The notes under the pieces: generated by a model
Told to the model about the DNA's origin: nothing
The model's input: only the letters and a program-made list of their open reading frames with translations
The model's database searches: none
Program-made: the position numbers and the translations under genes
Shown: one piece after another, positions 833-37,100 of the stretch
Numbering within the stretch: position 1 is the stretch's first letter
How the letters are laid out: every line of letters begins with the position of its first letter
NCBI GenBank assembly: GCA_965220045.1
Contig: OZ244803.1
Span: forward strand, 1,601,585 to 1,665,584
Origin: Chloroflexota bacterium
GTDB lineage: Bacteria > Chloroflexota > UBA11872 > VXOZ01
Reading direction: 5' to 3'
Length of the DNA: 64,000 bases

Positions 833-2005
833 ATGGTTTACGACCTGATTGTCCGCAACGGCGACATCATCGACCCGGTTGAGAACCGACGTTTCGTAGG
901 CGACATCGGCGTTGCCGACGGCAAGATCGCAACTTTGACGGAGGGCACGCTCGCGGGCAGCGGTCGGCAGGAGCTCAATGTAGCCGGCCATATCGTAACG
1001 CCCGGTCTGGTGGACCTGCACGGCCACTGCTACTGGGGAGTAGGCGGCACGGGACTGGACCCGGATCTGGTAGGCGCACGCCATGGTGTAACCACCTGGA
1101 TCGATCCCGGCAGCAGCGGTGCCGCTACGTTTCCTGCCTTTCGGCGCTTCATCATCGAGCAATCGCAGGTGCGGGTGGTTCCCTTGCTCAATCTCAGCGC
1201 CAAGGGTCTCGTGCATTGTCAGGATTTCGGCGAACTTTACGACATTCGTTACATCGACTCTGATCTCACTGCCGCCACCATTGAGCGTCACCGCGACCTC
1301 ATTGCCGGTATCAAAATACGCGCGGGTCGCTCCAGCACCGGTCCGATGGGCATGACCCCGCTGTGGATCGGCCGCGAACTCTGCGACCAGCTCTCAATTC
1401 CGCTCATGGTGCATATTTCGAACGTCGCGCCCACCCTTCAGGAGTTGCTCCCCATACTGCGAAAGGGCGACATCGTCACCCATTGCTTTCACGGCAAGGT
1501 GGGAGGGGTATTAATGCGTGGCCGGGTGCGCGACGAGGCGTGGGCGGCACGCGAGCGCGGCGTGCTCTTCGACATCGGTCACGGCAATAGCAGCTTTTCG
1601 TTTCCGGTTACCGAAGCCGCGCTGGAACAGGGATTTCCGCCGGACTCCATCAGTACAGACTTGCACCAAGTGAGCATTCGCAGCACGGCCCAGAGCTTTC
1701 CCCACATAATGTCCAAGTTTCTCGCCCTCGGCATGGATATCGAGACTGTAGTCCGCCTCAGCACACTCACACCGGCTCAAGCCGTGAACCGCGACCACCT
1801 CTGCGGCCGCCTCAGCGTCGGCGCTCCCGCCGACATTGCGGTATTCGGCATCAACACCGGCCACGTCACCTTCCAAGACCCGCAGGGAGAGGAGCGCGAC
1901 GGCACGGCAAGGGTAGAAAACACGCATACAATTGCGAAAGGCGTGCTCCTCGATCGCAGCCGCGATCCGTTGGGCGACAAACCGTTTCCCATGGATACGA
2001 TTTGA
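833..2005 (+). CDS. Amidohydrolase-family metal-dependent hydrolase (dihydroorotase/deacetylase-like)
   Basis: N-terminal DLIVRNGDIID...GHIVTPGLVDLHGHCYWG (HxH metal site) and later HISN..HCFHG..DIGHG motifs typical of the amidohydrolase superfamily. ATG at 833 is preceded by GAGGT; the track start at 827 is GTG. Confidence 0.6.
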   Translation: MVYDLIVRNGDIIDPVENRRFVGDIGVADGKIATLTEGTLAGSGRQELNVAGHIVTPGLVDLHGHCYWGVGGTGLDPDLVGARHGVTTWIDPGSSGAATFPAFRRFIIEQSQVRVVPLLNLSAKGLVHCQDFGELYDIRYIDSDLTAATIERHRDLIAGIKIRAGRSSTGPMGMTPLWIGRELCDQLSIPLMVHISNVAPTLQELLPILRKGDIVTHCFHGKVGGVLMRGRVRDEAWAARERGVLFDIGHGNSSFSFPVTEAALEQGFPPDSISTDLHQVSIRSTAQSFPHIMSKFLALGMDIETVVRLSTLTPAQAVNRDHLCGRLSVGAPADIAVFGINTGHVTFQDPQGEERDGTARVENTHTIAKGVLLDRSRDPLGDKPFPMDTI

Positions 2006-2054
2006 TGCGTCGCGGGCAACTGAGCGGGCAGCTCTTCTCCCGTCCCGCAGAGTA

Positions 2055-3617
2055 ATGGGCGTCATGCAAATCAAGTTCCTCCATGCGGCCGACATTCACC
2101 TCGGTTACCAGCAATACGGCTTGCCTGAGCGCTACGACGACTTCGCTGACGCATTCCAGTGGGTAGTAAACACTGCTCTCGAAGAGCGCGTCGATTTTCT
2201 CCTGATCGCGGGAGACCTGTTTGAGAAACGCACCCTCGACCCGCGCACGTTACTTATAGCCGTCATCGAATTTGAACGGCTTCAGGAAGCAGGAATCCCC
2301 GTCGTCGCCATCGAAGGCAACCACGAGCGCTCATACGGGGACAGTTTCTCCTGGCTGGAGTACCTCAATCAGAGGGACCTTCTCTATCTGTTGGACTGCT
2401 CGCGTCGCGAAGAGAGTTGGCAGCTCCAGCTGTGGAACCAAGTAGAACGGACCGGAGGGTACGTAGATCTTGCCGGTGCGCGAGTCTACGGCCTCAGATA
2501 TCAAGGCGCTCAGACCGGCGCGGCATTGAATGAAATTGGCTCGGCAATTGCCGCTGCCCCACCACATGGCGCGGCGTTCTCCGTATTTGTCGCCCACACT
2601 TCTGTGGAAGGCTATTTCGACCAAGGTCACCCATTCGCGCGCCAGCAGGACTTGGCTTCTCTCCGGCGGTGCATAGACTATCTCGCTCTTGGGCACGTTC
2701 ACGCGCCGTACAAGGGCGTTGTCGGCAATGGGGATTGGTTCTACAATCCGGGGAGTCCGGAATCGTGGAGCAGCGAAGAGTGGCAATACCAAAGCAAGGG
2801 CGCTTTCCTCGTACAGGTCGACACCGATCGGGAGCCAACCTTCAAAGCTGAGCCGCGCAACTATCCCGGTCGCCGGCCTTTCGTGCGCATCCGGCAAGAA
2901 CTGGATGCCTGCCCGAGCCCGGGTGTGCTCATGAGACTATTGGAGGAGAAGATTCAGCGCGAACCGCTGCCGAGCGCCGTCACAGAGTCGGAGCCGGAGA
3001 ACGCCACGCCACAGGGCATTTCAGACAACCAACGCCTTGCAACAAAGTCCCCGGTGGTGGAGATCGTGCTCACTGGTGTCGCACGCTTTGCCCGCACGGA
3101 GATCGATACAGCAGCTATTGAGCAACTAGCTAGAAAACACTTCGATCCGCTGCTCGTCCGCGTTCGTTCAACCTTGCAGGAAGCCCCAACCAGCGTGGTT
3201 GAGGACGGCCATGTCCTCCCGCGAGAAGTCCTTGAACGCACGGTCATTGAAGACCTCATTCGCGCCGATGATCGCTATGCCTCAGCGGCGGGTGATCTAG
3301 GCCAAAGCGCAATTCTGCTCAAGCAAATGGTCCTCGACGGAGTACCGGCCGCCGAGATTGCAGACGAATTGCAGCGCCGCCTACGTGTGCTTTCAGGTAC
3401 TGGAAGAGACGGCGTGCAGGGACAGACCGTGGCTAGCCTGCAGGAACGCACGGCGTCCCAAGGGAGTGGTAAAGACTTGACCGAAAGCGCCCCGGCCGCG
3501 CCTCCAGAGAGTGCTGAAGAGCAGGCGCCGGAGGCACAGCCCGATGAGACCATCGCGCAAGGGTCATTAATCCGGGCCGCTACCACAAGCGATGGGCATT
3601 CCAGCTCAACGGACTAG
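2055..3617 (+). CDS. sbcD: SbcD/Mre11-family DNA double-strand-break repair nuclease
   Basis: Calcineurin-like phosphoesterase motifs in SbcD order: FLHAADIHLG, IAGDLFE, IEGNHE, GHVH. Lies immediately upstream of sbcC (7-nt gap). Start taken at the internal ATG (MGVMQIKF); 2064 is possible. The upstream track extension overlaps the amidohydrolase. Confidence 0.8.
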   Translation: MGVMQIKFLHAADIHLGYQQYGLPERYDDFADAFQWVVNTALEERVDFLLIAGDLFEKRTLDPRTLLIAVIEFERLQEAGIPVVAIEGNHERSYGDSFSWLEYLNQRDLLYLLDCSRREESWQLQLWNQVERTGGYVDLAGARVYGLRYQGAQTGAALNEIGSAIAAAPPHGAAFSVFVAHTSVEGYFDQGHPFARQQDLASLRRCIDYLALGHVHAPYKGVVGNGDWFYNPGSPESWSSEEWQYQSKGAFLVQVDTDREPTFKAEPRNYPGRRPFVRIRQELDACPSPGVLMRLLEEKIQREPLPSAVTESEPENATPQGISDNQRLATKSPVVEIVLTGVARFARTEIDTAAIEQLARKHFDPLLVRVRSTLQEAPTSVVEDGHVLPREVLERTVIEDLIRADDRYASAAGDLGQSAILLKQMVLDGVPAAEIADELQRRLRVLSGTGRDGVQGQTVASLQERTASQGSGKDLTESAPAAPPESAEEQAPEAQPDETIAQGSLIRAATTSDGHSSSTD

Positions 3618-3623
3618 CGAACC

Positions 3624-6533
3624 ATGCGCGTTACCCAAGTCTCTCTCAAGAACATTAAGAGCTACCAGGAAGCCTCGATCTGCTTGCCGCAGGGCACGAT
3701 TGCGATTTCCGGGCCGAATGGCGCCGGCAAGAGCACCATTCTCGAAGCCATTGGCTTTGCGCTTTTCGACTTCTTGCCGTACCGCAATCAGCGTGACTTC
3801 ATGCGCCACAATGCCCTGGAGGCCGATGTGCGGGTGACGTTTCTCTCGCGCTTGGATGAGTGCCGGTATCAGGCGGTGCGTACGCTCAAGCGCGCCACCG
3901 GCAGTACGGAGACCGTAACTTCGACGTACTATGTCTATAGCCTAGACAGAAGTGAGCGTGTGGCCCAGCAGAAGCAGGCAGTGCAAGACTTCCTGCGGGC
4001 GCACATCGGCCTGGAAGATTACGACGACTTGGCGCGCGTCTTCGACAATGTTCTTGGTGTGCCGCAAGGTCGCCTGACTGCAGACTTTCAGCTTACACCG
4101 GCCCAGCGCAAGAGCACTTTTGATCCCCTGCTGCACGTCGACACGTACCGCCACGCCTATGATCGACTGCGGGATGTCCTTGACACTCTGCAAGGAAGAG
4201 CCTCGGACCAGGAGCGGCGCGTCTCTGCGCTGGAGCCGGAGGCGGCGCGACTACCGGAAGCTGTTGCCGCGCTCGCGGGATTTGAAGAGCAGCAAGCGGT
4301 TGCCGCACTGGAAGCCCGCAAACTGGCCGCAACGCAAGCGGAATTGCAGGATGAATTGCAGCGCCTGGAAGCGCAGCGGCGCACACTTGAGCAACAACGA
4401 GACCTTGCCAAGCGCCTCACACAGCAGCAAGCCCTCTTGCAGAGTCGCCTTGAGGCCGAGCACGAGCATGTCAACAGCGCCAAGCACGCGGTGGCGCTCA
4501 CGGGTTCGGCCGCCCCGGGGTACGCCTCCTTTCGCCGGGCGCAAGCAGAGCTTGCCAAACTTGAAGAGGACCGCGCGTCTGCCGAAGCGCTGAGCAAAAC
4601 CGGGCACGCTGCGGAGAGAAAGCTTGTAGCCTTGCAGACCCGGCAGGAGGCACTTGAAGCGGCGGTGGAAGAGGCCAGCACAGCGGCGGCGCAAAGAGAC
4701 GCGCTCATGCCGCAAGTGGCTGAACAAGAGCGTTTGGAAGCGTTGGTGCAGGATTTCAATGTCAATCTTGGCTTCGCGCGCCAGTTTGGGGAGCAGGCAA
4801 CACAAGTGCTGGGGAGAGTTGCCGTAGACGACGAAATTCGACTAACCCATGCAGCGAGTGACCTGCCCGCAGAGACTGCGTCTGCCGCAACTGCGCGTGC
4901 CCAGCTTGAGAACCAGCACAAGCATCTGCAGGAAGTCGGGCTCTGGCTCGAACAACGCACGGATTTACGAAATCGCCACCAACGCTTGCAGTCCGAGCAA
5001 AAAGAGTTCAAGAAAGCGGTGGCGCACTGTGAATCGTTCATGCCGGCTGCAGCGCGCTTGGACGGGCTGGAGCAGCAATTGCAGGGGGTACGGGACCGGA
5101 TTAGCGCTTACGCAGCGCAACGTCGTTTCAATCAAGAATCGCAGGCGATGGCCGCCGACGGTCTATGTCCATTCTTTAGGGACACTTGCCCGAAAGTGGA
5201 TGATGGCCAAAGCCTCATTCCAGTCATCGCCCGCCTAATACGTGACTCCGCGGGTCGGGCCGAACAGGCGCAGGCTGAAAGACAAGAGCTAGAAGTAGCT
5301 GTTGCCGAGGCCGAGGCCGCGCAGAAGCAAGTGGACCGCCTTCATGATCTCACGCCCCGCTTACGGCAGCTTGAAGGAGAACTGCACGACATTGAGGCGC
5401 AGATTCAAGACCTGTCACACCGTATCGGCAAGCGCCTCCACGGCGCATGGTCGGCACCGGCTATTGCGGCGCTGCTCGCGCAACTGCAAGCTACGGGCGA
5501 GTCGCTCGAGCGGCAGCGTGCAGAACTGGGCAATCCTCGCCAGGCCGCGGAGCGTCTGTACGGTACCGCCAACGAGTACACACAACGCGCGGAAGCATTG
5601 ACTGCGGCTAAGCGCGAACACGATGCGATCGAAGGGGAAGTCAGCTCCATTGCCGAGAGACTGGCGCCGTACGCGGACCTCGAAGAACGAGTGCGAATGC
5701 AACGCCAAACAGTTGAAGCCCACCGAGCAGACTACGAGGTCTACTTGCAGCACGAGAAAACGGCCGCCGAACTGCCACGACGCGAAGAGTCATTGGCAGC
5801 CCTCGTGGCTGATACGGAAGAGAATACGCGGGCTGTGGCGGAGTCTCAACACCTTCTTGCGGAGTGCGAGGAAGCCTGGGATCCGACCGCGCTCGCGGCA
5901 GCGCAAGCGCGCCTAAACCAGACTCAGAGCCAATTAGGGGCAGCCAACGAACGGCGCCGCCTTCTCGGTGAGCAGATCGAGCGGGCTCAGCGGGAAGTCG
6001 CTGGGCTGGAAGAAGCGACGCGGGATTTAAGCGAGGCCAGACAAGCGCTGGAAGAGGCATGCAACGTGCTGGCGGTTGCGGGCTTCTTGCGCAACGTCAT
6101 TCGCGACGCCGGCCCCCACATCACGCTGCACCTTATCCAGCAGATTTCCGCGGAGGCCAATACGCTCTTCAGTGAGGTCATGGGGGACGCTTCCGCCGAA
6201 CTTTCCCTCACTGAAGACTATGACATCATCCTGGAGCAACACGGGCACCGGCGCGCATTCGCGCAGTTGTCCGGCGGCGAGCAGATGAGCGCGGCGGTCG
6301 CCGTCCGGCTTGGCTTGTTGCGGCAATTGTCCGACATCAACATTGCCTTCTTCGACGAGCCCACCCAGAATATGGATGCCGAGCGCCGCCACAATCTGGC
6401 CGAGCAACTCGAACGCGTGACGGGGTTCAACCAACTCTTCGTCATCAGCCACGACGATACCTTCGAACCTATGGTCTCCACGGTGTTGCGAGTACGCAAG
6501 GAGAATGGCGTGAGCACGGTGGAAGTGGAGTAG
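3624..6533 (+). CDS. sbcC: SbcC/Rad50-family SMC-like ATPase
   Basis: N-terminal Walker A (ISGPNGAGKSTILEAIGFALF). About 650 aa of Q/A/E/L/R-rich predicted coiled coil with a central cysteine pair (LCPFFRDTCP, candidate zinc hook). C-terminal ABC signature LSGGEQMSAAVAVRLGL and Walker B/D-loop IAFFDEPTQNMD. Confidence 0.85.
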   Translation: MRVTQVSLKNIKSYQEASICLPQGTIAISGPNGAGKSTILEAIGFALFDFLPYRNQRDFMRHNALEADVRVTFLSRLDECRYQAVRTLKRATGSTETVTSTYYVYSLDRSERVAQQKQAVQDFLRAHIGLEDYDDLARVFDNVLGVPQGRLTADFQLTPAQRKSTFDPLLHVDTYRHAYDRLRDVLDTLQGRASDQERRVSALEPEAARLPEAVAALAGFEEQQAVAALEARKLAATQAELQDELQRLEAQRRTLEQQRDLAKRLTQQQALLQSRLEAEHEHVNSAKHAVALTGSAAPGYASFRRAQAELAKLEEDRASAEALSKTGHAAERKLVALQTRQEALEAAVEEASTAAAQRDALMPQVAEQERLEALVQDFNVNLGFARQFGEQATQVLGRVAVDDEIRLTHAASDLPAETASAATARAQLENQHKHLQEVGLWLEQRTDLRNRHQRLQSEQKEFKKAVAHCESFMPAAARLDGLEQQLQGVRDRISAYAAQRRFNQESQAMAADGLCPFFRDTCPKVDDGQSLIPVIARLIRDSAGRAEQAQAERQELEVAVAEAEAAQKQVDRLHDLTPRLRQLEGELHDIEAQIQDLSHRIGKRLHGAWSAPAIAALLAQLQATGESLERQRAELGNPRQAAERLYGTANEYTQRAEALTAAKREHDAIEGEVSSIAERLAPYADLEERVRMQRQTVEAHRADYEVYLQHEKTAAELPRREESLAALVADTEENTRAVAESQHLLAECEEAWDPTALAAAQARLNQTQSQLGAANERRRLLGEQIERAQREVAGLEEATRDLSEARQALEEACNVLAVAGFLRNVIRDAGPHITLHLIQQISAEANTLFSEVMGDASAELSLTEDYDIILEQHGHRRAFAQLSGGEQMSAAVAVRLGLLRQLSDINIAFFDEPTQNMDAERRHNLAEQLERVTGFNQLFVISHDDTFEPMVSTVLRVRKENGVSTVEVE

Positions 6534-6567: not shown

Positions 6568-7860
6568 GTGGTCTCAATCTGCTATGGCTATGCGTGCCAC
6601 TATAGTCTTGTCCGCCAAGCGTGCAATTGGCCGACCCATCAAACAAGCGCGGAGCGATTTGTGTTCTACAGTGACAAAGTGATCAATGCGCTCAGTCAGA
6701 AGCGCGCGGAACTGACGCAGCTCGATGCAGAGCAACAGGCCCGTCTGCGGGAGCTGTTTGCCGCGTGTGATGGGCTCTCAGGCATGACCTCGGCGGACAT
6801 TCGCGCACGCCTTGCTTCCGTGGAAGCGCCGGGTGCCTTGCCAACCGAGGAGTTCGACAGTGTGCCGGGCTTCAAAGTCCAGTTTCCGGAAGTTTGGGAC
6901 AATCTCTCGGCAATGCGTCTATGGGCATCGAAAATTCTTGCGGGTGTCACCGTGTGTGCCGTAGACGGCAGTCAATTGCCCGCCAGTAAGGACTTTCCTC
7001 TGCCTGTTGCGGTTGCTCAAGTCGCCTGGTTTACCAATCCACATGCCGCAGACTCGCCGCACGAGAAAGACGCGCACGTCGAGGTGCTGACGCCGCAAGA
7101 GCTACTGAAAGAGAATGTAGACGCGAGTCTCATGGTCGCTCTGCATCGCTACGAGCTTGAAGTAGCACGGATCAACACGTTCATGCGCGAGCAGTGTTCC
7201 CGAGACGAGCGCGCGGTTGCCCTCTTCGACGGCTCGCTAACCGTGACATTCGCCGGCTCCTATTCGGATGAAGTGCGCAAACGGTATCGCGCAGCGGCAG
7301 TAAGCATGCTGCGCACGTCGGAAGAGTGTCGCATTCCGCTCGTGGCCTATATCGACCGCTCGCGTGCCAACGACTTCACGACGATGCTCTGCCATTTAGG
7401 CGGCATCAGTCGTGCCAATGCTTCACTGATCAGCGACGCGGCAGTCTTGGATAGGCTCATAGACAATGAAGGTTTTTGGCGGACTGCCGCATTCGTGTGC
7501 CAGCGTCCGGACGTGGCAAAGAGTGAGAACTACCAAGACAACCAATCCGGCGAGACCTATAGCGACCAGATTTGCTTTACGTACGTGAAACTCAACAGCG
7601 GGCGGCCCGTCCGGCTGGAGTTTCCCAGGTGGCTGCTCCGCGCCGGTCTGCTTGACAGCGTGATAGACTGGGTGCGAGCCGAGGCGATCGTTGGCGGCGG
7701 GTATCCGTACGCCATCCAAGCGGCCGACGCTGCCGCCGTGATTACTTTTCAGGACCGCCAGCGATTTATGCGCGCCCTGGAAGAGTTCGGCCGTCACCAC
7801 AACATCGGTACCTTGCAGGCATCCGCGAAGCAGGCCAGTAAAGAGCGGCGACGGGCGTGA
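6568..7860 (+). CDS. nurA: NurA-like 5'-3' nuclease (RNase H-like fold) candidate
   Basis: Sits 35 nt after sbcC on the same strand. Contains a (hydrophobic)4-D-G-S motif (VCAVDGSQLP) resembling NurA motif I. Size (about 400-430 aa) and the Mre11/Rad50/HerA neighbourhood fit NurA. The start is GTG and uncertain (other in-frame GTGs near 6661/6682). Confidence 0.45.
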   Translation: MVSICYGYACHYSLVRQACNWPTHQTSAERFVFYSDKVINALSQKRAELTQLDAEQQARLRELFAACDGLSGMTSADIRARLASVEAPGALPTEEFDSVPGFKVQFPEVWDNLSAMRLWASKILAGVTVCAVDGSQLPASKDFPLPVAVAQVAWFTNPHAADSPHEKDAHVEVLTPQELLKENVDASLMVALHRYELEVARINTFMREQCSRDERAVALFDGSLTVTFAGSYSDEVRKRYRAAAVSMLRTSEECRIPLVAYIDRSRANDFTTMLCHLGGISRANASLISDAAVLDRLIDNEGFWRTAAFVCQRPDVAKSENYQDNQSGETYSDQICFTYVKLNSGRPVRLEFPRWLLRAGLLDSVIDWVRAEAIVGGGYPYAIQAADAAAVITFQDRQRFMRALEEFGRHHNIGTLQASAKQASKERRRA

Positions 7861-7934
7861 ATTCTCAGGAGTCGGTGTGCGGGCGTGAGTGTGCAGGCCT
7901 GGATGTACACTGTATTAGCATTGTTCGCGGAGTC

Positions 7935-8060
7935 ACCGTTCGCCCCCGTATCGAGTACGGGGCAAGCTCTGAGCCTGCCTGTCCTGAGCTTGCCGAAGGG
8001 TCGCAGGGCACTTGTACATGCTTCGACAGGGCTACGGCGAAGCAGTCTCACAGTACGAAT
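7935..8060. repeat. Family-A dispersed palindromic repeat (REP/MITE-like), copy 1
   Basis: Contains CCCCGTATCGAGTACGGGG hairpin plus GCAAGCTCTGAGCCTGCCTGTCCTGAGCTTGCCGAAGGGTCG. The same modules recur near 13.3, 26.4, 29.4, 37.05, 40.78 and 53.43 kb. Confidence 0.7.
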
Positions 8061-8126
8061 GAAAAGCATAGGCTCTGCAAACACGCACCAAATGACAATA
8101 TGACCAGGCTGTAAGAGGCGGCAACC

Positions 8127-8723
8127 ATGCCAGTGATCGGGCGCATCGTCAAGTCCAATTCCCATACCGACTACGTTTGCCAAGTCTTCGCTCCACGGGA
8201 GACGGAGCACGATCCCGATCCACGCGATTACGCCTTCGGACGCTTCGTAAAGGCCCCAATTGGTCCTGCCGATGGGCGCACAGCCGTCGGTATCGTCTAC
8301 GACACCATTCTCCTCAATCCGGAATATGGCAGCCTCGGCCCCCGCTTGAATCCTCCCTCCGAGCAGGCGATGCTCGCGCCGGATTACCTTATGGAAAAGG
8401 CGACGGCAGTCGGCATCATCGTCGTTGGACTGCAGCATGGGGATGCAATCGAGCACGGGGTCATTCGGCTCTCACTCCCCGTTGACGCGGAGGTCACCAG
8501 CCTGGATGACGCGGAAACCCGCCGCTTCCACCTAGTAGACGGAAAGCTCACGCTTGGCTATCTTCCCAGCCTCGTCTCGCATTCAAGTCCCTTGGTCACA
8601 GAGCTGGGGCTCGGCGTCATTCGTCATCTTCTCACGCTCTTCGACGATCCGGGCGACCAGCGCCTGCTGCGCACGCTCGCCTCTCACTTCTCCTGGCAGG
8701 CGAGAGTCACGCCGCTTGGCTAG
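8127..8723 (+). CDS. Hypothetical protein (198 aa) embedded between the NurA-like and HerA-like genes
   Basis: ATG preceded by AGAGG and protein-like composition. No family recognised. The N-terminus (VIGRIVKSNSHTDYVCQVF...GRFVKAPIG...AVGIVYDTILLN) weakly resembles the N-terminal barrel region of the downstream HerA-like protein (IVGIAKGPGDTPNEYTFVT...). Confidence 0.4.
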   Translation: MPVIGRIVKSNSHTDYVCQVFAPRETEHDPDPRDYAFGRFVKAPIGPADGRTAVGIVYDTILLNPEYGSLGPRLNPPSEQAMLAPDYLMEKATAVGIIVVGLQHGDAIEHGVIRLSLPVDAEVTSLDDAETRRFHLVDGKLTLGYLPSLVSHSSPLVTELGLGVIRHLLTLFDDPGDQRLLRTLASHFSWQARVTPLG

Positions 8724-9051
8724 AATTCATCGAATTCATGCTCCGCTTTGTGTAGACCCGCCCATCGCCAGGCTTCGAACCTGCCACAGCGTGACCGTAC
8801 CTCGGCGCAGGCCTGCAACCGGCGCTACCGTGCCTGCAATTGGCCATGCTATGCATCTCTGCGTTTGATGTGACAGCACCGGGGCCTGGCTCCCACTTCT
8901 TGACGCGCAAAATCAATACGATCTAGGGCATGGCGGTTAGCTGTAGAAGCAACGCATGAATGCCTGTCCCATCCGCTAGTGGTGCGGTAGCTCTGGTAAA
9001 CTAAACGGGCACACGAAGACCCTCCCGCAAACAGAACGAGGCAATGAGCGT

Positions 9052-9825
9052 ATGCGCAAAAACCCTGTTAAGAACCTCCTCAAGGCGGGTAAGCCCGCTA
9101 TCGGCACCTGGCTTACTCTTGGCGATCCTCTGGCAACGGAATCTTTGGCGCACCTGGACTTCGACTGGCTCAACGTCGATATGGAGCACGGATCCATCGA
9201 CGTGCGGGAAACCCGGGCACTCTTCCAGGTTATCAACACGACCGACGTCGTACCCACGGCGCGCGTGCCCTGGAACGATCACGTGTGGATCAAGCGTGTG
9301 CTCGATGCCGGCGCATACGGCGTGGTGGTGCCGATGGTGCGCACGCGCGAGGAAGCCGAGCGCGCCGTGGCCGCCTGCCGCTATCCGCCCGACGGCATTC
9401 GCAGCATTGGCAGCGGACGCAATCACTATGCCTTTCGCGGCACGCAGGCCGACTATCTTGCCCGTGCTAACGATGAGCTTCTCGTCATCATCCAGATCGA
9501 GCACGCTGATGCCATCCGGCAACTCGACGACATCCTCAGCGTGCCCGGCATCGACGCGGCCTTCATCGGCCCCAATGACCTCTGCGCCTCCATGGGCATC
9601 CCGCCCAGCACCGATAGCGAGCATCCTGACTTTGAGTCTGCTGTCAGCCAGGTTGTCACCTCTAGCCGCAAACATGGCGTCGCGCCGGGCATCCACACGA
9701 GTTCGGGTGAGGCGCTGACCAGGCGGCTCGAGCAGGGCTTTCGCTACCTGGGCCTTGCCAACGATCAGCGCCTGCTCATCAAGGGCGCAACCGAAGAGTT
9801 AGCCGTCATTCGGCGTGAACCGTAA
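9052..9825 (+). CDS. HpcH/HpaI-family aldolase (2-keto-3-deoxy-sugar acid / 2,4-dihydroxyhept-2-enedioate aldolase-like)
   Basis: Full-length similarity pattern to class II HpcH aldolases: KAGKPAIGTWLTLGDP...DFDWLNVDMEHG...GAYGVVVPMVRTREEAE...CRYPPDGIRSIG. ATG with upstream GAGG. Confidence 0.75.
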   Translation: MRKNPVKNLLKAGKPAIGTWLTLGDPLATESLAHLDFDWLNVDMEHGSIDVRETRALFQVINTTDVVPTARVPWNDHVWIKRVLDAGAYGVVVPMVRTREEAERAVAACRYPPDGIRSIGSGRNHYAFRGTQADYLARANDELLVIIQIEHADAIRQLDDILSVPGIDAAFIGPNDLCASMGIPPSTDSEHPDFESAVSQVVTSSRKHGVAPGIHTSSGEALTRRLEQGFRYLGLANDQRLLIKGATEELAVIRREP

Positions 9826-9864
9826 ATGGTAACTTGCTTTGGAGGCCATTGCATAGCCAGGGTC

Positions 9865-9965
9865 GGAGGCGCAAAGTCCCCTTTCCATTGAGGGGACCTT
9901 TGCGTAATCCTTGCAACAGCGTGGTAGTCCCCTCTCCCTTGACGGGAGAGGGTTAGGGTGAGGGT
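9865..9965. repeat. Hairpin cluster downstream of the aldolase (family-C element; terminator-like)
   Basis: GCAAAGTCCCCTTTCCATTGAGGGGACCTTTGC and CCCTCTCCC-TTGAC-GGGAGAGGG inverted repeats, followed by GGGTTAGGGTGAGGGTG. A related inverted copy lies at about 62.94-63.01 kb and a CCCTTCTCCC-TGA-GGGAGAGG variant at about 22.80 kb. Confidence 0.5.
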
Positions 9966-10046
9966 GAATCTTCGTCAATTTGGAATGCGGCACACACAGG
10001 CATCACCGCGTAGGCGCGCAAACGGCTTAGCTGAGGATAACGATTG

Positions 10047-11921
10047 ATGATTGTTGGCATTGCCAAAGGCCCCGGCGACACACCGAACGAATACACATTC
10101 GTCACGCCCGATACCGAGCGGCGCGTAAAGACGAGCGAATTCGTCTATTACGAAGCGGATGTCGACGGCACCCAGCGGCAGATCTTGGGCCGCGTGATTC
10201 GGCGCATCCCGTTGCGACTCTACCCAGATTCATTTCTGGCGCACCCGGAAGTGGACCCGGCGCAGATGGCGGCAATGGTTGGCTACTACCAGAAGAGTGT
10301 ACCAACCGGGGAAGCTTGGGATGACGCGAACGAGGAGTCCGCCGAGCTCTTCGAAATCCATGTCAGCATCATGGGCTATCACGATGCGCAATTGAGCGCC
10401 TTCGTCAACCCACGCATTCCCCCGCGCATCGGTTGGAAAATCTACCTTGCTCCTGACAACGCGTTGGCGGAGGTGCTGAACCGCGTCGCCTTCGACTGGG
10501 ACAATGCCGAAGCGCAATCGGGTGGAGCATTTGTAGGCTCGCTGTTGTCACGTCCTGCCTTCAATCCGCGAGCGGACCAACCCGACGGTGTCCCTGTGGT
10601 CCTGGACGTCCGCTCTATCACGGCAACTCACATGGCCATCATCGCCGGCACCGGCGCGGGCAAGAGTTACTTGGCCTCGGTGCTCATTGAAGAGATGATG
10701 AAACCCATCAACCGCGCCAGTATCTTGGTAATCGATCCTCACGGCGAATACGACACACTCGAAGAGATCCGCAATGCTGGTGAGTTTGCCAGCAGCGACG
10801 GCTACAAGGCAGCAGTGAAGACCGTGCCCCAGGACCAGGTGAAGATCCGCGTCTCCGATCTCACGTTTAACGACATGCGCTTCTTGCTTGGGGCACAGTT
10901 CGGCCTCTCAGGACCTATGGAGTACGTGCTGCGAGTGGCGATGGACCGGGTAGAAGGCGAGCGCAAGGACAAGACTGCCTGGACGACGAACGATCTCTAC
11001 GCGGCATTGGCCTACATGCAGGGCGGCGAGGAAGAGCCGCAAGCGGAGGATATCCGTCATTCCCGCGCAAGCGGGAATCCATCCTCAGACGCTGCCGATC
11101 TTGGTTGGCTCGATGATGCTGGCAAGACCGAGACGCAGACTTCGAGTGCCAAGCCTGATTTCCAAATGCGCGGCAGCGCGCGGGCATTGGACTGGCGGCT
11201 CAAGAGTCTCTTTGCCGAGTCACCGAATTTCGATAACATCGAGTCCATCAACCTCCACGATGTCTTTCGACCTGGGCTATGCTCGGTCTTACAGCTCAAC
11301 GAGATCGACCGCCGCCAGCAGCAAGTGATTGTGGCGGTGCTCCTGCGCATGGTCTGGAAGGCGCGCATGAACGCCGCGAAGGGCATCGGCTCCCCACTGG
11401 ACCGGCTCGACTATCCGGTATTCATCTTGCTCGAAGAGGCCCATCACTTCGCGCCGGCAAACGAAGATGTGGTCACTACCAACATTCTGAAGACAATTCT
11501 CGCTGAGGGTCGCAAGTTCGGTGTCGGTGTCGGCCTGATCAGCCAGCGTCCGGGCAAGCTCGACTCCGACGTGCTCTCCCAGTGCATGACGCAATTCCTG
11601 CTGCGCATCGTCAACGAATACGATCAAAGCAGCGTGGCTGCCTCCGTGGAGAGCGCTAGCCATGACCTGCTGGCAGAACTGCCCGCACTATCGAAGGGCC
11701 AAGCAATCGTGGCCGGAGCCGCGGTAAACACGCCGCTCTCCATTCGTGTCAGGCAGAGGATTACGCGCCACGGCGGTGTAGAGCCCGACGCTCCAAGTGA
11801 GTGGGCGCAGTACTTCTCCGCTGAGGCGCGCCGCCGCCGGGAAGTGGACAATTCAGGACTGCCCGCTGGCCCGCCTCGCGGTCGGAGCAATATTCTGCGT
11901 AAGAGCGGAAACGGTCGCTAA
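10047..11921 (+). CDS. herA: HerA-like FtsK/HerA-superfamily ATPase/helicase (DUF87-type)
   Basis: Walker A HMAIIAGTGAGKSYLAS. Conserved acidic motifs LVIDPHGEY and FILLEEAHHFAP (Walker B). GLISQRPGKLD (arginine finger region). N-terminal barrel-like domain. ATG at 10047 is preceded by GAGGAT; the track start at 10044 is TTG. Confidence 0.75.
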   Translation: MIVGIAKGPGDTPNEYTFVTPDTERRVKTSEFVYYEADVDGTQRQILGRVIRRIPLRLYPDSFLAHPEVDPAQMAAMVGYYQKSVPTGEAWDDANEESAELFEIHVSIMGYHDAQLSAFVNPRIPPRIGWKIYLAPDNALAEVLNRVAFDWDNAEAQSGGAFVGSLLSRPAFNPRADQPDGVPVVLDVRSITATHMAIIAGTGAGKSYLASVLIEEMMKPINRASILVIDPHGEYDTLEEIRNAGEFASSDGYKAAVKTVPQDQVKIRVSDLTFNDMRFLLGAQFGLSGPMEYVLRVAMDRVEGERKDKTAWTTNDLYAALAYMQGGEEEPQAEDIRHSRASGNPSSDAADLGWLDDAGKTETQTSSAKPDFQMRGSARALDWRLKSLFAESPNFDNIESINLHDVFRPGLCSVLQLNEIDRRQQQVIVAVLLRMVWKARMNAAKGIGSPLDRLDYPVFILLEEAHHFAPANEDVVTTNILKTILAEGRKFGVGVGLISQRPGKLDSDVLSQCMTQFLLRIVNEYDQSSVAASVESASHDLLAELPALSKGQAIVAGAAVNTPLSIRVRQRITRHGGVEPDAPSEWAQYFSAEARRRREVDNSGLPAGPPRGRSNILRKSGNGR

Positions 11922-12014: not shown

Positions 12015-13070
12015 ATGCCCTTCAACTATGAATACACGCGCCACATACGCGCAGGCTTCATTGGCTGCGGCAAGCACGCCTACCAGAGTATCCTGCCCAG
12101 TTTTCAATTCGCCCCGGTAGAGTTGGTCGCCGTCTGCGACCTTATAGCAGAACGCGCCCGGTTTTGCGCGCGGCAGTTCGGTGCCCTGCGGTCGTACACC
12201 GACTATGCCGAAATGCTGGCCCAGGAAGAGCTGGACGCGGTCTTCGTGGTGCTCAATCACGATGCGCGGGGACGCCCCCAGTACGCGCCGGTGGCAATCG
12301 ACGTCCTGCGCGCGGGCGTTCACGTCTGGATTGAGAAACCGCCGGCTTCTACCCTGGCAGAGATCGAGGACATGCAAGCGGCACGGGACGAGGCGCAACG
12401 CTTCGTCCAGGTGGGCTTCAAGAAACCATTCTATCCCGCCATCCAGCACGCAAAGCAGTTGATGGCCCAACCGGAATTTGGCGCGCCCACGTCGGCGTAC
12501 GTCCATTATGCCGTGGACCTGCCGCCAGTCGCGGGACGCCCCCACAGTCCCGAGATGATGCGCTTCCTCCAAATCGGCTGCCATCCACTCTCGATCCTGC
12601 AATACCTGCTTGGTCCGGCACACACGCTCTACTTTGCCGATGAAGCGCGGTGGGGCAGTTCGCTCGGCGTCTTCACGTTTGCCAACGGCAGCATCGGCTG
12701 CCTGCATCAGGCCGCAGGAAAGGGAGAGAACGCGCCTTGGGACCGCGTGGAGGTGAACGGCGAAGGCGCCTCGCTGGTCGTCGAAAACGGCGTCGACCTC
12801 ACGTACTACCCACCGGGCGCGCCGCGTTCGCGGGAGTCCTTCGTCAGCGCTGACGCCAGCGCGCCGCGCCGCTGGCAGCCCGACTTCTCCCACGGACGCC
12901 TGGCCAACAAGGGCCTCTTTCTTCTGGGCTACGCCCCCGAAATCATCGCCTTTGCCGAAAGCGTGCTCAACGATACACCACCCACCACGGCCACCCTTGA
13001 AGACGCCCACGACGTGATCCGCATGTACCTCGGCTACACGCAGCCGGCCGGACAGGTCATAGCCCTTTAG
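12015..13070 (+). CDS. Gfo/Idh/MocA-family NAD(P)-dependent oxidoreductase
   Basis: N-terminal Rossmann region IRAGFIGCGKHAY and the family's EKP motif (VHVWIEKPPASTLAE). Internal ATG start chosen; the upstream track extension lacks coding support. Confidence 0.65.
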   Translation: MPFNYEYTRHIRAGFIGCGKHAYQSILPSFQFAPVELVAVCDLIAERARFCARQFGALRSYTDYAEMLAQEELDAVFVVLNHDARGRPQYAPVAIDVLRAGVHVWIEKPPASTLAEIEDMQAARDEAQRFVQVGFKKPFYPAIQHAKQLMAQPEFGAPTSAYVHYAVDLPPVAGRPHSPEMMRFLQIGCHPLSILQYLLGPAHTLYFADEARWGSSLGVFTFANGSIGCLHQAAGKGENAPWDRVEVNGEGASLVVENGVDLTYYPPGAPRSRESFVSADASAPRRWQPDFSHGRLANKGLFLLGYAPEIIAFAESVLNDTPPTTATLEDAHDVIRMYLGYTQPAGQVIAL

Positions 13071-13184
13071 GTTCCCCAGTGCAAGGGTTGCTTTCAGACA
13101 CTATGTGGATGCCGCAACGCACGAACGTATCGCCAAAGCATGGCAAAGTTGACGCTCTCTTTGTGCTGGATGCCAGTGTCGCCC

Positions 13185-13372
13185 ACCTCTTGTAGCGCAG
13201 GGGCTTGTCCCCCCGCCTCTTCTATTCCCCCTTGGCTTAGACCAATGGTGAGCTCAGAAAACGGCCGAACTGTGACAAGGAATTCCACACCCCGTTCACC
13301 CTGAGCCTGCCTGTCCTGAGCTAGTCGAAGGGTCGAAGAGCGTACACGGTTCGACAAGCTCACCGCGAACGG
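13185..13372. repeat. Composite repeat region between convergent genes: a family-B copy (GTAGCGCAGGGGCTTGTCCCCCCGC) plus a family-A copy
   Basis: The same sequence modules recur at 36.0/36.2 kb (family B) and at the family-A sites. Confidence 0.6.
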
Positions 13373-13408
13373 AAAATAAGTACGGAAACGAGAAAAACCC
13401 ACACGTCC

Positions 13409-14368
13409 TCAAACAGGCGGTGGAATCGGCGGCAGGTCGTAGTCGCGGGCTTCTAAAGCCATAATCTCCGCCATCTCCTCTGCGGTTATGGGATTTCCCC
13501 CGGACGCCCGCACATTGTCCTCAACCTCGGCAACCGTCATGGCTCCAGGAATGACCCCATGCACACCGGGTGTCGCGAGCACAAATTGCAGCGCAGCTTG
13601 CGTCATGGTTCTCTCTTTTATAAGAAAATCCAGTTTCTCTACCCGCGTGAGCACAGCGTCAATGAAGTCTGCCCTAAACTTGCGCCGGTCGTCATGATCG
13701 TCAAAGACCGTCTTGCGCGTAATCGCACCGGTGAGAAAGCCGAAGTAAAAGTTCTCCCGCGCGATTACTCCCACGTCTCTTGCCACAGCTAATGGGAAGA
13801 GCTCCTGCGACGGCAGTGTGTACAGCAGCCGATAGGCCTGCTGAATGACATCCACGTCGCCCTGCTCGATGAGACGCATTGCCATCGGTATGCCCTCGTC
13901 CACCGACATGACGGAAAACCCCGTTGCCCGGATCTTGCCCTGCTCCTTCAAGCGTACGAGCGCCTCCAGCCCGTCGTCGCGGTAGAGATCCTCATCGGGA
14001 CTATGGAGGAAGTAGATGTCGAGATAGTCCGTGCGCAGGCGGCGCAGGCTCTCCTCGACTTCGCGCATGACCGTGGCCCCGGAGTAGTCGAAACTCGTGC
14101 GGCCGCCGGGAAACATGCCTACCTTCGTCGCCAGCACGACCTCGTGCCGCCGTCCCGCAATGGCCTTTCCCACAACCTCTTCACTGCGGCCGTTACCATA
14201 GACTGGCGCGGTATCGATGTGATTGACGCCCAGCTCCAGCGCCCGCAGGACCGCCCGCTCTGACTCCTCATCGTCCGCGTAACCGTAGCGGTCGCCGCCC
14301 ATCCCCCATGTGCCCAACCCCACCTCCGAGATGCGTATGCCTGTTCTCCCCAGAGTCCGGTAACGCAC
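13409..14368 (-). CDS. Aldo/keto reductase family oxidoreductase
   Basis: N-terminal MRYRTLGRTGIRISEVGLGTWGMGG...LELGVNHIDTAPVYGNGRSEE is the classic AKR signature. GTG start with GGGAGG RBS. Confidence 0.8.
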   Translation of the reverse strand: MRYRTLGRTGIRISEVGLGTWGMGGDRYGYADDEESERAVLRALELGVNHIDTAPVYGNGRSEEVVGKAIAGRRHEVVLATKVGMFPGGRTSFDYSGATVMREVEESLRRLRTDYLDIYFLHSPDEDLYRDDGLEALVRLKEQGKIRATGFSVMSVDEGIPMAMRLIEQGDVDVIQQAYRLLYTLPSQELFPLAVARDVGVIARENFYFGFLTGAITRKTVFDDHDDRRKFRADFIDAVLTRVEKLDFLIKERTMTQAALQFVLATPGVHGVIPGAMTVAEVEDNVRASGGNPITAEEMAEIMALEARDYDLPPIPPPV

Positions 14369-14591
14369 GAGTCAACCTCCCTGTCCCATATGCATCATTT
14401 CGCTTATTCTGAGACATCGAGTACCTGCAGTCCATCACCCACCCGTACAGACGTGGCGGCAGCAACCGAAGATGGCCGATTGCAGTCCGACCGTGACCCG
14501 CCAATCCAAATGTGCATTCGACAGATGGCCGGGATTTCCGGTATTCTGTTGCTGGTTTTTGTAACACTTAACAGTCTGGCTCTTACCTGAA

Positions 14592-15725
14592 ATGAAGATT
14601 CACGAGTATCAAGCAAAAGAGATTCTAGCAAAGTACGGCTTGCCTATTCCGCCCGGGCACGTCGTCACCACGCCGGATGGGGCACGGGCAGCGGCGGCCC
14701 AGATTGGTGGCACTGTGGTCGTCAAAGCGCAGGTACTGGTAGGCGGGCGCGGCAAGGCCGGCGGCGTGAAGCTGGCCGCCACACCGGACGAGGCTGCCGA
14801 AGAGGCGGCGGACATTCTGGGCATGGACATCAAGGGCATCACCGTACAGCGGGTATTGGTAGCGCAGGCGGTGGACATTGCCACGGAGATCTATCTCGGC
14901 GTAATACTCGACAGGACATCCAAAGCCATTACCATCATGGCCAGTGCTGAAGGCGGTGTGGAGATTGAGGAAGTCGCTCGCGAGACGCCGAAGAAGATTC
15001 ATCGCGTGCACGTACATCCGTTGGCAGGATACGCCGACTACCAGGGCCGCCAATTGGCCTTCGACATCGGCATACCGCCGGATCTCAGCCGAGACTTTGC
15101 GCGCATCGTCCGTACGCTTGTCCAAGCCCTCACGGAGAACGACGGCGAATTGGTGGAAATCAACCCGCTAGTCATCACCGAGGACGGCACGATCCAGTGC
15201 ATCGACGCTAAGATCAACCTCGACGACAACGCGCTCTACCGCCACAAGGATCTGGCGGAACTGCGCGACCATGCTGAAGAAGAACCCGCCGAACGCGCGG
15301 CCCGCGAGGCGGGACTCTCATTTGTTAAGCTCGACGGCACCATCGGTTGCGTCGTCAACGGCGCCGGCCTCGCCATGGCAACCATGGATACCATCAAGCT
15401 AAGCGGTGGCAGCCCGGCCAATTTTCTGGACATTGGGGGCGGCGCCCGCGCGGAGAGCGTCGAGAACGCGCTGCGCATCATTCTCGACGACGAAAACGTG
15501 AACGCCGTCCTCTTCAACATCTTCGGCGGCATCACCCGCTGCGATGAAGTAGCGCGCGGTATCGTCAGCGCCTTGCCCTCGCTCCCCCGCCGGGTCCCGA
15601 TGGTGGTGCGCCTTGTCGGTACGAATCAGGAAGAGGGACGCGCCATCCTGCAGGAAGCGGGGCTTGTTGCTGCGGATTCCATGCAAGCCGCATCGCAAGA
15701 GGTAGTAAGGGTGGCTGACGCATGA
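14592..15725 (+). CDS. sucC: Succinate--CoA ligase (ADP-forming) beta subunit
   Basis: [12 protein letters not shown]...[21 protein letters not shown]-grasp N-terminus. Its stop overlaps the sucD start (ATGA). Confidence 0.9.
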
Positions 15726-16594
15726 GCATCCTCGTAGATGAAAACACGCGCTTGCTCGTCCAAGGCATCACCGGCCGCGAAGGCACGTTCCACACGGAAC
15801 AGATGGTGCACTACGGTACGAACGTGGTAGCCGGTGTGACGCCGGGCCGCGGCGGACAGGAGGCGTGCGGCGCGCCGGTGTTCAATACCGTTGCGCAGGC
15901 GGTGCGCGAGACCGGCGCAAATGTCTCGATCATCTTTGTGCCGGGTCCTTTTGCCCCTGATGCTGTTATCGAAGCCGTAGACGCCGGCATTCCCCTCGTG
16001 GTCTGCATCAGCGAGCACATCCCCGTGCAGGACATGCTGCGCGTGTATCATTATGTAAATATAAAGGGCGCGCGATTACAAGGACCGAACTGCCCCGGCC
16101 TCATTTCGCCGGGCAAGGCCAAAGTGGGCATTATGGCGGGCGACATTCATATCCCCGGTCCCGTGGGCGTGGTCAGCCGCTCCGGCACTCTCACATACGA
16201 AGTCGTTTCTCACCTCACGGGACAGGGCGTGGGACAGTCCACCGTCGTCGGCATTGGCGGCGATCCGGTCATCGGCACCGGCTTCATTGACGTGCTGCGC
16301 ATGTTCGAGCAGGACCCTGAAACGGAAGCGGTAGTCATGATTGGTGAAATCGGTGGCACTGATGAGGAGGATGCCGCCGCTTTCATCAAGGCGCACATGA
16401 CCAAGCCCGTCGTTGGCTTCATCGCCGGACGCACCGCTCCTCCCGAGAAACGCATGGGACACGCCGGCGCTATCGTCTCCGGGGGCATCGGCACGGCCGA
16501 ATCCAAAATCGAGGCGCTCCAGGCAGCAGGCGTGCACGTCGCAGACTTCCCCCGCGAAGCGGCGCTGCTGGCAGCCGAGCGCACTTCGTCTTAA
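15722..16594 (+). CDS. sucD: Succinate--CoA ligase alpha subunit
   Basis: [16 protein letters not shown]...[10 protein letters not shown]...[11 protein letters not shown]...active-site His region [11 protein letters not shown]. Confidence 0.9.
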
Positions 16595-16633
16595 GCATGG
16601 GAAAATATAACGTAGCGTAAGGGGAGAAGAGCG

Positions 16634-17947
16634 ATGGCACTCTCAATCGGCGCGGCGCAACGCAACATCTCACCGCCCTTGGGCACGCACATGGCCGGGT
16701 ATTACCACGTACGCCCTGCCAGCGCAATTCATGACGACCTCTTTGCGCGAGCAATGGTGATCGACGACGGTACCACCACAATCGCGCTAGTCACGTGCGA
16801 TCTGGTGTCTATCCGTGAAGAGAGCGTTATCAACGCGCGGGAGCAGGTGGCGGAAAATTCCGACATCCCCGGCGGCAATGTGCTCATCTGCTGCACCCAT
16901 ACCCACACCGGGCCCATCACACGCGGCGACCGCAGTTCAGCAACGTTTGGCAGCATGAGCGACTCGTACATGGAAACTTTGGAGAAGCAGATTGCCGCGG
17001 CGGTGACGGAGGCCTGGGAGACCCGCACGCCGGGCACGCTGCGAATCGGCAAGTCGCAAGAGACCCGCATCGCATTCAACCGCCGCTTTCACATGCGCGA
17101 CGGCAGCGTGAAGACCAACCCGGGCAAGAACAATCCCGATGTCATACGACCGGTTGGCCCCATCGACCCCGACGTCTATGTGCTTCTCGCGGAATCCGAC
17201 CAGGGAGATCCGATTGGCGTGCTCGTGAATTACTCCCTGCATGCGGACACGACCGGCGGCGACCAGATCTCTGCCGACTACTCCGGCTGGATGGAAAAGC
17301 ACCTCAGGAACATGTCGCCGGAGTTGGATGAAGCAGTGGTCCTCTATGCCAATGGCTATTGCGGCGATATCAACCACGTCAACGTAAACGATCCGGACCA
17401 ACTGAAGGGTTTTGAGGAGTCCGAACGCATTGGCCGCGCGCTTGCCGAAAGCGCCACGCAGTCACTCTCAAACTTGGAGCCGCTAGCAGGCGAAACCGTG
17501 CACGCATCCCAGCGCAGCGAGGCGCTGCCGGCCGTCGTGCCGACTGCGGAGGACATTGCCTGGGCACGAGAGGCGGTGGAGGCTTCTCCGCGGGGCGGCG
17601 GTCCCGGACGAGACGACTTGGTGAAGGCGCATCGCGACCTCGCGCTGCAGGAATTGAACAAACAACACTTCGATACGGAAGTGCAGGTGCTCTCCGTCGG
17701 CAACGTGGCAATTACGGCGCTGCCGGGCGAAATGTTCGTCGAGCTTGGGCTTTCCATCAAAGCACACTCGCCGTTTGAGCACAATCTGCTGGCGGAGCTT
17801 GCCAACGGCAATTTGGGCTATATCTGTACGGAAGCGGCGTATCCGCAGGGTGCCTACGAACCCACCTCGAGCCGCGTTTTGCCCGGCTCCGGGGAGCAAC
17901 TCGTACGCGCTGCGCTCGCTATGCAGCGGGAAATCGCCGGAGACTGA
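16634..17947 (+). CDS. Neutral/alkaline ceramidase-like hydrolase (N-terminal ceramidase_alk-type domain)
   Basis: ICCTHTHTGP motif matches the HTHSGP-type catalytic signature of neutral ceramidase-family hydrolases. About 437 aa with a GGGGAGAAG RBS. Confidence 0.5.
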   Translation: MALSIGAAQRNISPPLGTHMAGYYHVRPASAIHDDLFARAMVIDDGTTTIALVTCDLVSIREESVINAREQVAENSDIPGGNVLICCTHTHTGPITRGDRSSATFGSMSDSYMETLEKQIAAAVTEAWETRTPGTLRIGKSQETRIAFNRRFHMRDGSVKTNPGKNNPDVIRPVGPIDPDVYVLLAESDQGDPIGVLVNYSLHADTTGGDQISADYSGWMEKHLRNMSPELDEAVVLYANGYCGDINHVNVNDPDQLKGFEESERIGRALAESATQSLSNLEPLAGETVHASQRSEALPAVVPTAEDIAWAREAVEASPRGGGPGRDDLVKAHRDLALQELNKQHFDTEVQVLSVGNVAITALPGEMFVELGLSIKAHSPFEHNLLAELANGNLGYICTEAAYPQGAYEPTSSRVLPGSGEQLVRAALAMQREIAGD

Positions 17948-18039
17948 ATGACGATATACAGGGGCAGACAGCGTCCCGTGCAAGAGTAAATTTGCACACA
18001 CGCGTCGGCACGCAGAGCCCTGAATCTCGAGCCTGCTGT

Positions 18040-18080
18040 ATTGATATGCCCTGCTGGTGTATAATTGAGAAAGAATATAG
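18040..18080 (+). promoter_or_regulatory. Candidate sigma70-type promoter in an AT-rich island upstream of korA
   Basis: TTGATA...TGTATAATTGAG: a perfect -10 hexamer TATAAT in a locally AT-rich (about 45% GC) 240-bp intergenic region. The spacer to the candidate -35 is short, so the assignment is tentative. Confidence 0.3.
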
Positions 18081-18188
18081 AAAACTAATCTAGTGCTAAT
18101 GCACAGCGCTTATAGCGGCGTATCTTTCAATGGCGAAGCCGCTGTCGAAAAAACATGAGGTATCTACAGGAAGTAAAGTCTTAGATCT

Positions 18189-37004: not shown

Positions 37005-37100
37005 GTTCGCCCCCGTATCTTTCGATACGCTGTATCGGTCGATACTCCTATCGAGTACGGGGCAGGCTCTGAGCATCGTCGAAGGGTGAACGGCGAAGGT
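37005..37100. repeat. Family-A dispersed repeat copy
   Basis: GCCCCCGTATCTTTCGATACGCTGTATCGGTCGATACTCCTATCGAGTACGGGGCAGGCTCTGAGCATCGTCGAAGGGTGAACGG. Confidence 0.65.

Follow-up and report, generated by a model that had tools for sequence, protein, structure and literature searches.

Introduction

HerA hexamers have been studied as two-component machines, in which the ATPase is joined by NurA in repair and by Sir2, DUF4297 or TdpB in phage defence. Cryo-EM of the Deinococcus NurA–HerA complex showed that six HAS (HerA–ATP synthase) barrels form a putative DNA exit, and that their acidic surface is the docking site of the basic NurA dimer, each NurA contacting four of them (PMC9960219). The 64-kb stretch of DNA analysed here (the window) encodes the same ATPase and nuclease families as the archaeal and Deinococcus–Thermus NurA–HerA resection complex, and in the same mre11–rad50 neighbourhood. 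Between its nurA and herA genes lies a further gene, encoding a 198-aa protein of the DUF8166 family. Combining comparative genomics with structure prediction, we propose that DUF8166 is probably a third subunit, so far unstudied, of the machine that HerA and NurA form for DNA-end processing.

Results

ORF 8127–8723 is a real gene of the DUF8166 family

The ORF at 8127–8723 on the plus strand starts with ATG and is supported by the ORF listing, by homologues and by public gene calls. Direct reading of the sequence shows a Shine–Dalgarno-like AAGAGG motif at 8113–8118 on the same strand, 8 nt before the ATG. Comparison with six orthologues by the Nei–Gojobori method gave dN/dS values of 0.07–0.13, with dS up to 1.27. 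Among 5.8 billion proteins searched, 65 homologues of ~200–250 aa each were recovered, at 35–100% identity, and independent public gene calls give the same 198-aa product. Since the low dN/dS, the homologues and the gene calls all indicate that the ORF is coding, it is a real gene under purifying selection. In agreement with these data, a preceding reading of the locus, made from the sequence alone (the sequence-only reading), had described an ORF with good coding composition and an AGAGG ribosome-binding site.

The same reading had assigned the ORF to no recognisable family. This is true for local scans with Pfam (at E<=1), NCBIfam and PADLOC, none of which matched the ORF, but not in general, since the family is PF26500 (DUF8166). 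This is the precomputed Pfam label of P0001, a 100%-identical protein, and of 64 other homologues, and it also marks the called gene in the source record of the 198-aa protein. The lack of a local Pfam match is explained by the PF26500 model being newer than the Pfam copy scanned. A full-text literature search for "DUF8166" found no paper; the family is catalogued and functionally blank.

To define the family more broadly, its profile was searched against 1.84 billion representatives clustered at 50% identity, which yielded 342 DUF8166 clusters at E<=1e-3. Nearly all of these ~340 clusters are stand-alone proteins of 190–230 aa. Where a source is named, it is almost always Chloroflexota (Anaerolineae, Caldilineaceae, Ktedonobacteria, Thermogemmatispora, Chloroflexia-type MAGs and Thermobaculum), together with a few MAGs labelled otherwise (Rubrobacter, Verrucomicrobiota). 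An alignment of 38 sequences, reaching down to ~41% identity, contains 29 invariant columns. These cluster in the first hairpin (S10, H13, V17 and Q19) and again in residues 58–90 (Y58, T60, L62, N64, P65, G68, G71–L74, P85–Y87 and E90).

A repeat and an aldolase gene are insertions in the gene row

In the window, DUF8166 belongs to a co-directional row, mre11–rad50–nurA–DUF8166–aldolase–herA, all on the plus strand. The row comprises genes for an Mre11-like phosphoesterase (1932–3617; PF00149), a Rad50/SbcC-like ATPase (3624–6533; PF02463/PF13476), a NurA-domain nuclease that is the upstream neighbour of DUF8166 (6568–7860; PF09376, E 8e-34), an HpcH/HpaI aldolase between DUF8166 and herA (9052–9825; PF03328, E 5e-39) and a HerA translocase with its own N-terminal barrel at residues 1–145 (10044–11921; PF01935, E 6e-34; NCBIfam helicase_HerA, E 4.5e-52). 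PADLOC gave no match for the ORF or for NurA, and the HerA gene was matched only by generic HerA models. A promoter and terminator scan of 7800–10100 found none.

The aldolase gene is found between DUF8166 and herA only in close relatives of the window (L006–L011, L015 and L017), and is a clade-specific insertion. It is a metabolic gene lodged within a DNA-repair operon, on the same strand as its neighbours. The spacer between nurA and DUF8166 holds a 74-nt dispersed repeat (7936–8010), identified by its copies within the window. Copies with 97–99% identity lie on the minus strand at 26351–26424 and 53405–53478, and partial copies at 13301–13335 and 37049–37074. The repeat is intergenic and contains an internal CCCCGTA...TACGGGG hairpin; its folding was no better than that of shuffled sequence (z = -1.4). 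According to the local REARRANGEMENT, the nurA–DUF8166 spacer is 266 nt long in the window, compared with 12 nt in the closest relatives (L006–L019), so we conclude that the repeat was inserted into this spacer.

The order nurA–DUF8166–herA recurs in Anaerolineae-type and Chloroflexia-type lineages and in the window's own lineage, and is probably ancestral in all three. We therefore rejected the idea that the ORF itself is an insertion, given this common order and the 12-nt spacer in the closest relatives. These observations revise the sequence-only reading on several points. It had placed the ORF between the NurA-like and HerA-like genes, which is correct, except that the ORF is not directly beside herA because the aldolase gene (9052–9825) intervenes. 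It had framed the ORF as inserted, whereas it is the repeat and the aldolase gene that are insertions. It had also reported a REP-like repeat upstream: the repeat is genuine, as its copies in the window confirm, but the idea that it signals rearrangement affecting the DUF8166 gene is not supported.

The link of DUF8166 to herA is tighter than that of nurA

Scanning one genome for each GTDB species identified 159 DUF8166 loci, and the best 80 of these 159 were compared by tblastn with the window's six proteins, combined with ORF delimitation. Of these 80 loci, 78 are informative, and 71 of the 78 have herA downstream of DUF8166 and on its strand; the other seven lack herA nearby, and two further loci are truncated. 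The distance to herA is at most 300 nt in 54 loci, 14 of which show a 4-nt stop/start overlap, an arrangement typical of translational coupling. Another 17 loci have a gap of 0.3–2.3 kb that contains an inserted gene or spacer, such as the aldolase gene in the window's clade or a DUF433 gene in Caldilineaceae locus L028 (10512–10868). In contrast, 32 loci have nurA within 400 nt upstream of DUF8166, and in 40 of 76 informative loci it is missing from as much of the upstream flank as was available, so that it adjoins DUF8166 in only ~40% of loci. By these counts, DUF8166 has a tighter link to herA than nurA does. The sequence-only reading had asked whether homologues co-occur with HerA and NurA in other genomes, and had considered that they might never be co-located; they are, in most informative loci for herA and in the smaller share just given for nurA.

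The surroundings of the pair differ widely. Anaerolineae metagenomic contigs carry mre11–rad50–nurA–DUF8166–herA with 18-nt and -4-nt junctions, and the mre11–rad50 order of the window is also seen in L001–L004 and many other loci. In Ktedonobacter racemifer and in Caldilineaceae, the DUF8166–herA pair stands by itself amid housekeeping genes that are unrelated to it: in the former, its flanks encode MoxR, glycosyltransferases, a response regulator and a transcription regulator, and in the latter they carry amidase, glyoxalase and YceI genes. A Caldilineaceae contig has a solitary nurA of the window's NurA subfamily beside a methyltransferase gene (Methyltransf_1N and DNA_binding_1 domains), and acidobacterial nurA is likewise solitary. 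NurA and HerA had been described as an obligate pair; with solitary nurA genes in the Caldilineaceae contig and in Acidobacteriota, this pairing turns out to be loose in these phyla. A Blastocatellia herA of the same subfamily as the window's has no DUF8166 upstream, indicating that HerA does not need DUF8166 in principle, and DUF8166 seems to be something that Chloroflexota in particular have added to this HerA subfamily. These nurA and herA genes come from loci L088 (8001–9215), L089 (8001–9221) and L090 (1358–2019).

The link is not absolute in the other direction either. A sister clade of the window's lineage (L012–L014, L016 and L018–L020) has kept mre11–rad50–nurA–DUF8166 with no herA within 10 kb, and in addition to these seven genomes, one Ktedonobacteria-like locus lacks herA. 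Taken together, the DUF8166–herA pair is therefore the conserved core, and nurA and mre11–rad50 are frequent but separable neighbours.

Three of the loci contain other genes worth recording. Downstream of DUF8166 in L012 (10588–17008) are a minus-strand cupin gene, a gene for a 687-aa protein and two BrxD-like ATPase genes; the 687-aa protein has an NgoFVII/PLD-like nuclease domain and weak P-loop NTPase matches. In the Ktedonobacteria-like contig L005 (188–2665), a 230-aa DUF8166 gene that is not beside herA lies between an ECF-type sigma-70 gene and one whose product weakly resembles spore-photoproduct lyase, with DUF1643, DUF488 and DNA polymerase III beta genes further downstream. Possibly, this copy is a second paralogue that belongs to another DNA-damage setting. 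In L001, one of the Anaerolineae metagenomic contigs, two IS605 OrfB/TnpB-like genes (1052–4116) lie upstream of the mre11–rad50–nurA–DUF8166–herA row, and a gene for a 2159-aa protein with a faint NACHT match lies downstream of it (12601–19080).

The same loci bear on whether DUF8166 could be a partner of NurA rather than of HerA, acting as an acidic mimic of the HAS-barrel collar that would bind NurA at its HerA-docking face, and serving as a chaperone, inhibitor or loading factor that keeps hold of the nuclease until HerA engages. In the window's lineage and in the sister clade, 12 nt separate the gene from the nurA upstream of it, and the seven genomes mentioned above keep nurA and DUF8166 together with no nearby herA. 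The protein is also acidic (pI 5.5, with 4.9 for its N-domain and a family median of 5.0), as is the HerA N-domain (4.9), and in Deinococcus the face of the HerA barrels that contacts the basic interface of NurA is acidic too (PMC9960219). However, herA stays beside DUF8166 in the 40 of 76 informative loci without upstream nurA, a Caldilineaceae nurA is solitary while DUF8166 and herA are paired, and the 4-nt overlaps are typically with herA, L034 alone also overlapping nurA. For these reasons, we regard a NurA-directed role as unlikely.

The predicted fold of DUF8166 resembles the N-terminal barrel of HerA

An AlphaFold2 model of DUF8166, built with the 38-sequence alignment, reached a mean pLDDT of 84.8 and a pTM of 0.81. 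It predicts a beta-barrel domain at residues 1–127 (8127–8507, plus strand), supported by Foldseek and with pLDDT ~90 in the strands, of which there are seven (3–10, 15–20, 40–44, 51–64, 92–104, 107–110 and 122–125). The loop at residues 65–91, between strands 4 and 5, carries two short helices. This loop is the least confident part of the model (pLDDT 61–63) and yet the most conserved: judged by alignment columns, conservation peaks at residues 58–90 (8298–8396, plus strand; YDTxLxNPxxGxxGPRL...PDYxxEK), which we infer to be a candidate interaction surface. DSSP analysis of the model assigns residues 128–198 (8508–8720, plus strand) to a helical C-terminal region, with a linker helix at 128–135 and further helices at 146–150, 155–171 and 175–197. 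These helices occupy the place of HerA's RecA-like ATPase core. No P-loop, DUF87/PF01935 or AAA match was found in the 198-aa protein with Pfam, NCBIfam or PADLOC. The RecA-like core with Walker A and B motifs that defines HerA/FtsK-type ASCE ATPases is thus missing from DUF8166, whose post-barrel region is purely helical.

A Foldseek search with an AlphaFold model had been suggested as a check of the sequence-only reading. Run against the PDB, it returned 67 matches with E-values of 1e-3 or below, the best being 2.3e-6 with a probability of 1.00, and the best 50 of these 67 are all HerA-family ATPase chains. They include chains from Thermococcus kodakarensis HerA–NurA (9x1l/9x1m), SIR2/HerA (8wld/8wod) and HerA–DUF4297 (9c1m/8zis/8zit), as well as TdpA (8wet/8wfd), Nezha (8j4u/8sub) and the Sulfolobus (4d2i) and Deinococcus (7wrw) proteins. 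The best 50 alignments span 127–188 columns (mostly 130–165) at 8–21% identity, with TMq of 0.36–0.48, so that the query-normalised TM-scores against HerA chains are modest. The viral structure library gave no fold match to the model at E<=1e-3, which argues against promiscuous matching of small barrels. Neither the sequence searches nor the best 50 fold matches included a confident match to an unrelated family without a barrel, an outcome that had been named as evidence against a HAS-barrel-like protein.

As a control, we modelled residues 1–199 of the window HerA with AlphaFold2, using 27 database HerA N-terminal fragments. The overall pLDDT was 68.5, rising to 77–89 in the barrel blocks. 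Strands were predicted at 3–10, 16–22, 33–40, 43–56, 102–114, 119–121 and 132–135, with a helix-bearing loop at 57–101 and a helix at 138–145 after the last strand. Both models thus share the element order b1-b2-b3-b4-[helical loop]-b5-b6-b7-helix. In Foldseek, the control matched these PDB HerA chains as well, with E-values spanning the same range (best 2.8e-6). From the parallel in secondary structure and from the control search, we deduce that it is the N-domain of HerA that DUF8166 matches; both comparisons concern predicted models, with target ranges unreported. By these comparisons, the predicted DUF8166 model has the HAS-barrel fold of solved HerA N-domains, and residues 1–135 appear to be the structural counterpart of the N-terminal HAS barrel of HerA and its linker helix.

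The HerA subfamily of the window has a highly conserved insertion of its own, LRLYPDSFLAxPxVxPxxVAAxxGY, between strands 4 and 5 (encoded within 10044–10640, residues 57–101). This loop and the invariant loop of DUF8166 occupy the same topological position, without significant sequence similarity, and may be functionally related surfaces.

By sequence, the two proteins could not be matched. BLASTP of the 198-aa ORF against the operon's own HerA gave a non-significant E of 2, hhalign of the DUF8166 profile against HerA profiles gave probabilities of 1% and 0.2% (full-length and N-terminal profiles were tried), and hmmsearch of the profile against all PDB sequences returned nothing at E<=10. Sequence and profile comparison thus do not place DUF8166 among HAS barrels, and its common descent with HerA is argued from fold and position only, because similarity at these levels is undetectable. 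The earlier suggestion that the N-terminus loosely parallels the HerA barrel consequently stands for the fold, as seen in the model and in Foldseek, but not for the sequence; the pairwise alignment with HerA N-termini proposed at the time is the BLASTP comparison above, in which any resemblance is statistically undetectable.

Two other ways of tying DUF8166 to HerA were considered and rejected. When Rosetta-stone fusions were sought, the only long match was P0151 (448 aa), which consists of a DUF8166 N-part, a low-complexity stretch rich in Arg, Gly and Pro, then a HerA N-terminus and, at the C-terminal end, an unrelated tail; this protein has the look of a chimeric or frameshifted gene call, not of a true DUF8166–HerA fusion. 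A "split HerA", in which the ORF would supply a missing barrel, is contradicted by the AlphaFold2 model and Foldseek search of HerA, which keeps its own N-terminal barrel.

The fold data also bear on a second alternative, in which DUF8166 is an effector, either an enzyme or a sensor of ligand or DNA, that is powered or regulated by HerA, much as Sir2, DUF4297, TdpB and NurA serve other HerA hexamers as catalytic partners, and uses the barrel as a scaffold only. HerA ATPases are usually paired with an effector gene, as in the solved complexes among the Foldseek matches, and DUF8166 is the sole conserved herA neighbour in Ktedonobacteria and Caldilineaceae. Its invariant polar residues (S10, H13, Q19, E25, T60, N64, R73, D86, E90 and H135) are unusually numerous and would also fit a catalytic or ligand-binding site. 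We consider an effector role quite unlikely all the same: sequence searches gave no match to a nuclease, NADase or other enzyme family, the best 50 of 67 fold matches are to HerA-family chains throughout, the protein is small and acidic, and in many lineages NurA already gives the operon a bona fide nuclease.

DUF8166 as a candidate accessory subunit of HerA

The fold match and the co-location with herA favour the first option of the sequence-only reading, a HAS-barrel-like accessory subunit. In our judgement it is reasonably probable that DUF8166 is a stand-alone, ATPase-less HAS-barrel paralogue acting as a dedicated accessory subunit that binds the HerA hexamer; this estimate covers the real gene, the HAS-barrel-like fold and the functional linkage to HerA jointly with the proposed binding. 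From fold and gene order, we infer physical binding of DUF8166 to HerA, the site of binding and a regulatory or adaptor effect. DUF8166 would be made in step with HerA, from the same gene row and often through translational coupling. Its barrel, its invariant loop (58–90) or both would then dock on or beside the barrel collar of HerA, and this could tune how the ring assembles, how the nuclease docks or how DNA passes through while DNA ends are processed.

A bolder version of the accessory-subunit proposal is possible, and we offer it tentatively: DUF8166 would be the first free-standing HAS-barrel subunit, forming its own ring or intercalating in the HerA collar, where it would gate the DNA exit or select the docked nuclease, making the Chloroflexota HerA machine a three-component one. 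On this view, the DUF8166–HerA pair may have a NurA-independent function in lineages with an unlinked nurA. At the other extreme, it is highly improbable that DUF8166 is a decaying partial herA duplication, or an unrelated hitch-hiking gene without a role in HerA function, even though a tandem partial duplication would account for its place immediately before herA, its sequence similarity to HerA is gone and no copy precedes the related Blastocatellia herA, because strong purifying selection (dN/dS ~0.1), 29 invariant positions across Chloroflexota lineages, a length of ~200 aa kept in ~340 clusters, and herA synteny kept in very different genomic surroundings with translational-coupling overlaps all speak against decay.

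Discussion

Our literature search found no description of a conserved free-standing barrel paralogue coupled to herA. A gene that copies the docking domain of HerA and is translationally coupled to herA throughout a bacterial phylum points to a further layer of regulation or assembly, not yet described, at the nuclease-binding face. DUF8166, with the mechanism proposed here, is mainly confined to Chloroflexota. The family gains a concrete, testable functional hypothesis, and structural biology a defined three-protein complex to study.

Among known systems, the anti-phage HerA systems Sir2–HerA/Nezha, DUF4297–HerA and TdpAB share with the lone DUF8166–herA pair a two-gene logic, in which a small partner is encoded with herA. 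Their HerA chains are among the best fold matches of DUF8166, whereas their effector chains are not, and unlike these anti-phage partners, DUF8166 has no effector-like domain. The genomic context also differs, since the window shows a repair-type mre11–rad50–nurA row and not a defence island.

The HAS barrel of HerA itself (4d2i from Sulfolobus, 7wrw/7f6d from Deinococcus and 9x1l from Thermococcus) is the closest structural parallel. According to the predicted model, it has the beta-barrel fold in common with DUF8166. Both are acidic and have a helix after the last strand, and DUF8166 shares with the neighbouring HerA a helix-containing loop between strands 4 and 5; moreover, DUF8166 is encoded in the herA/nurA/mre11/rad50 gene row. 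In contrast to the HAS barrel, which is a domain of an ATPase, DUF8166 is a free-standing protein of ~200 aa with its own set of invariant residues and without detectable sequence similarity. It also differs from HerA as a whole in having a ~70-residue helical C-terminus in place of the RecA-like core, Walker motifs and helix bundle. Finally, the described NurA–HerA systems are two-component, whereas the window has a third conserved gene between nurA and herA.
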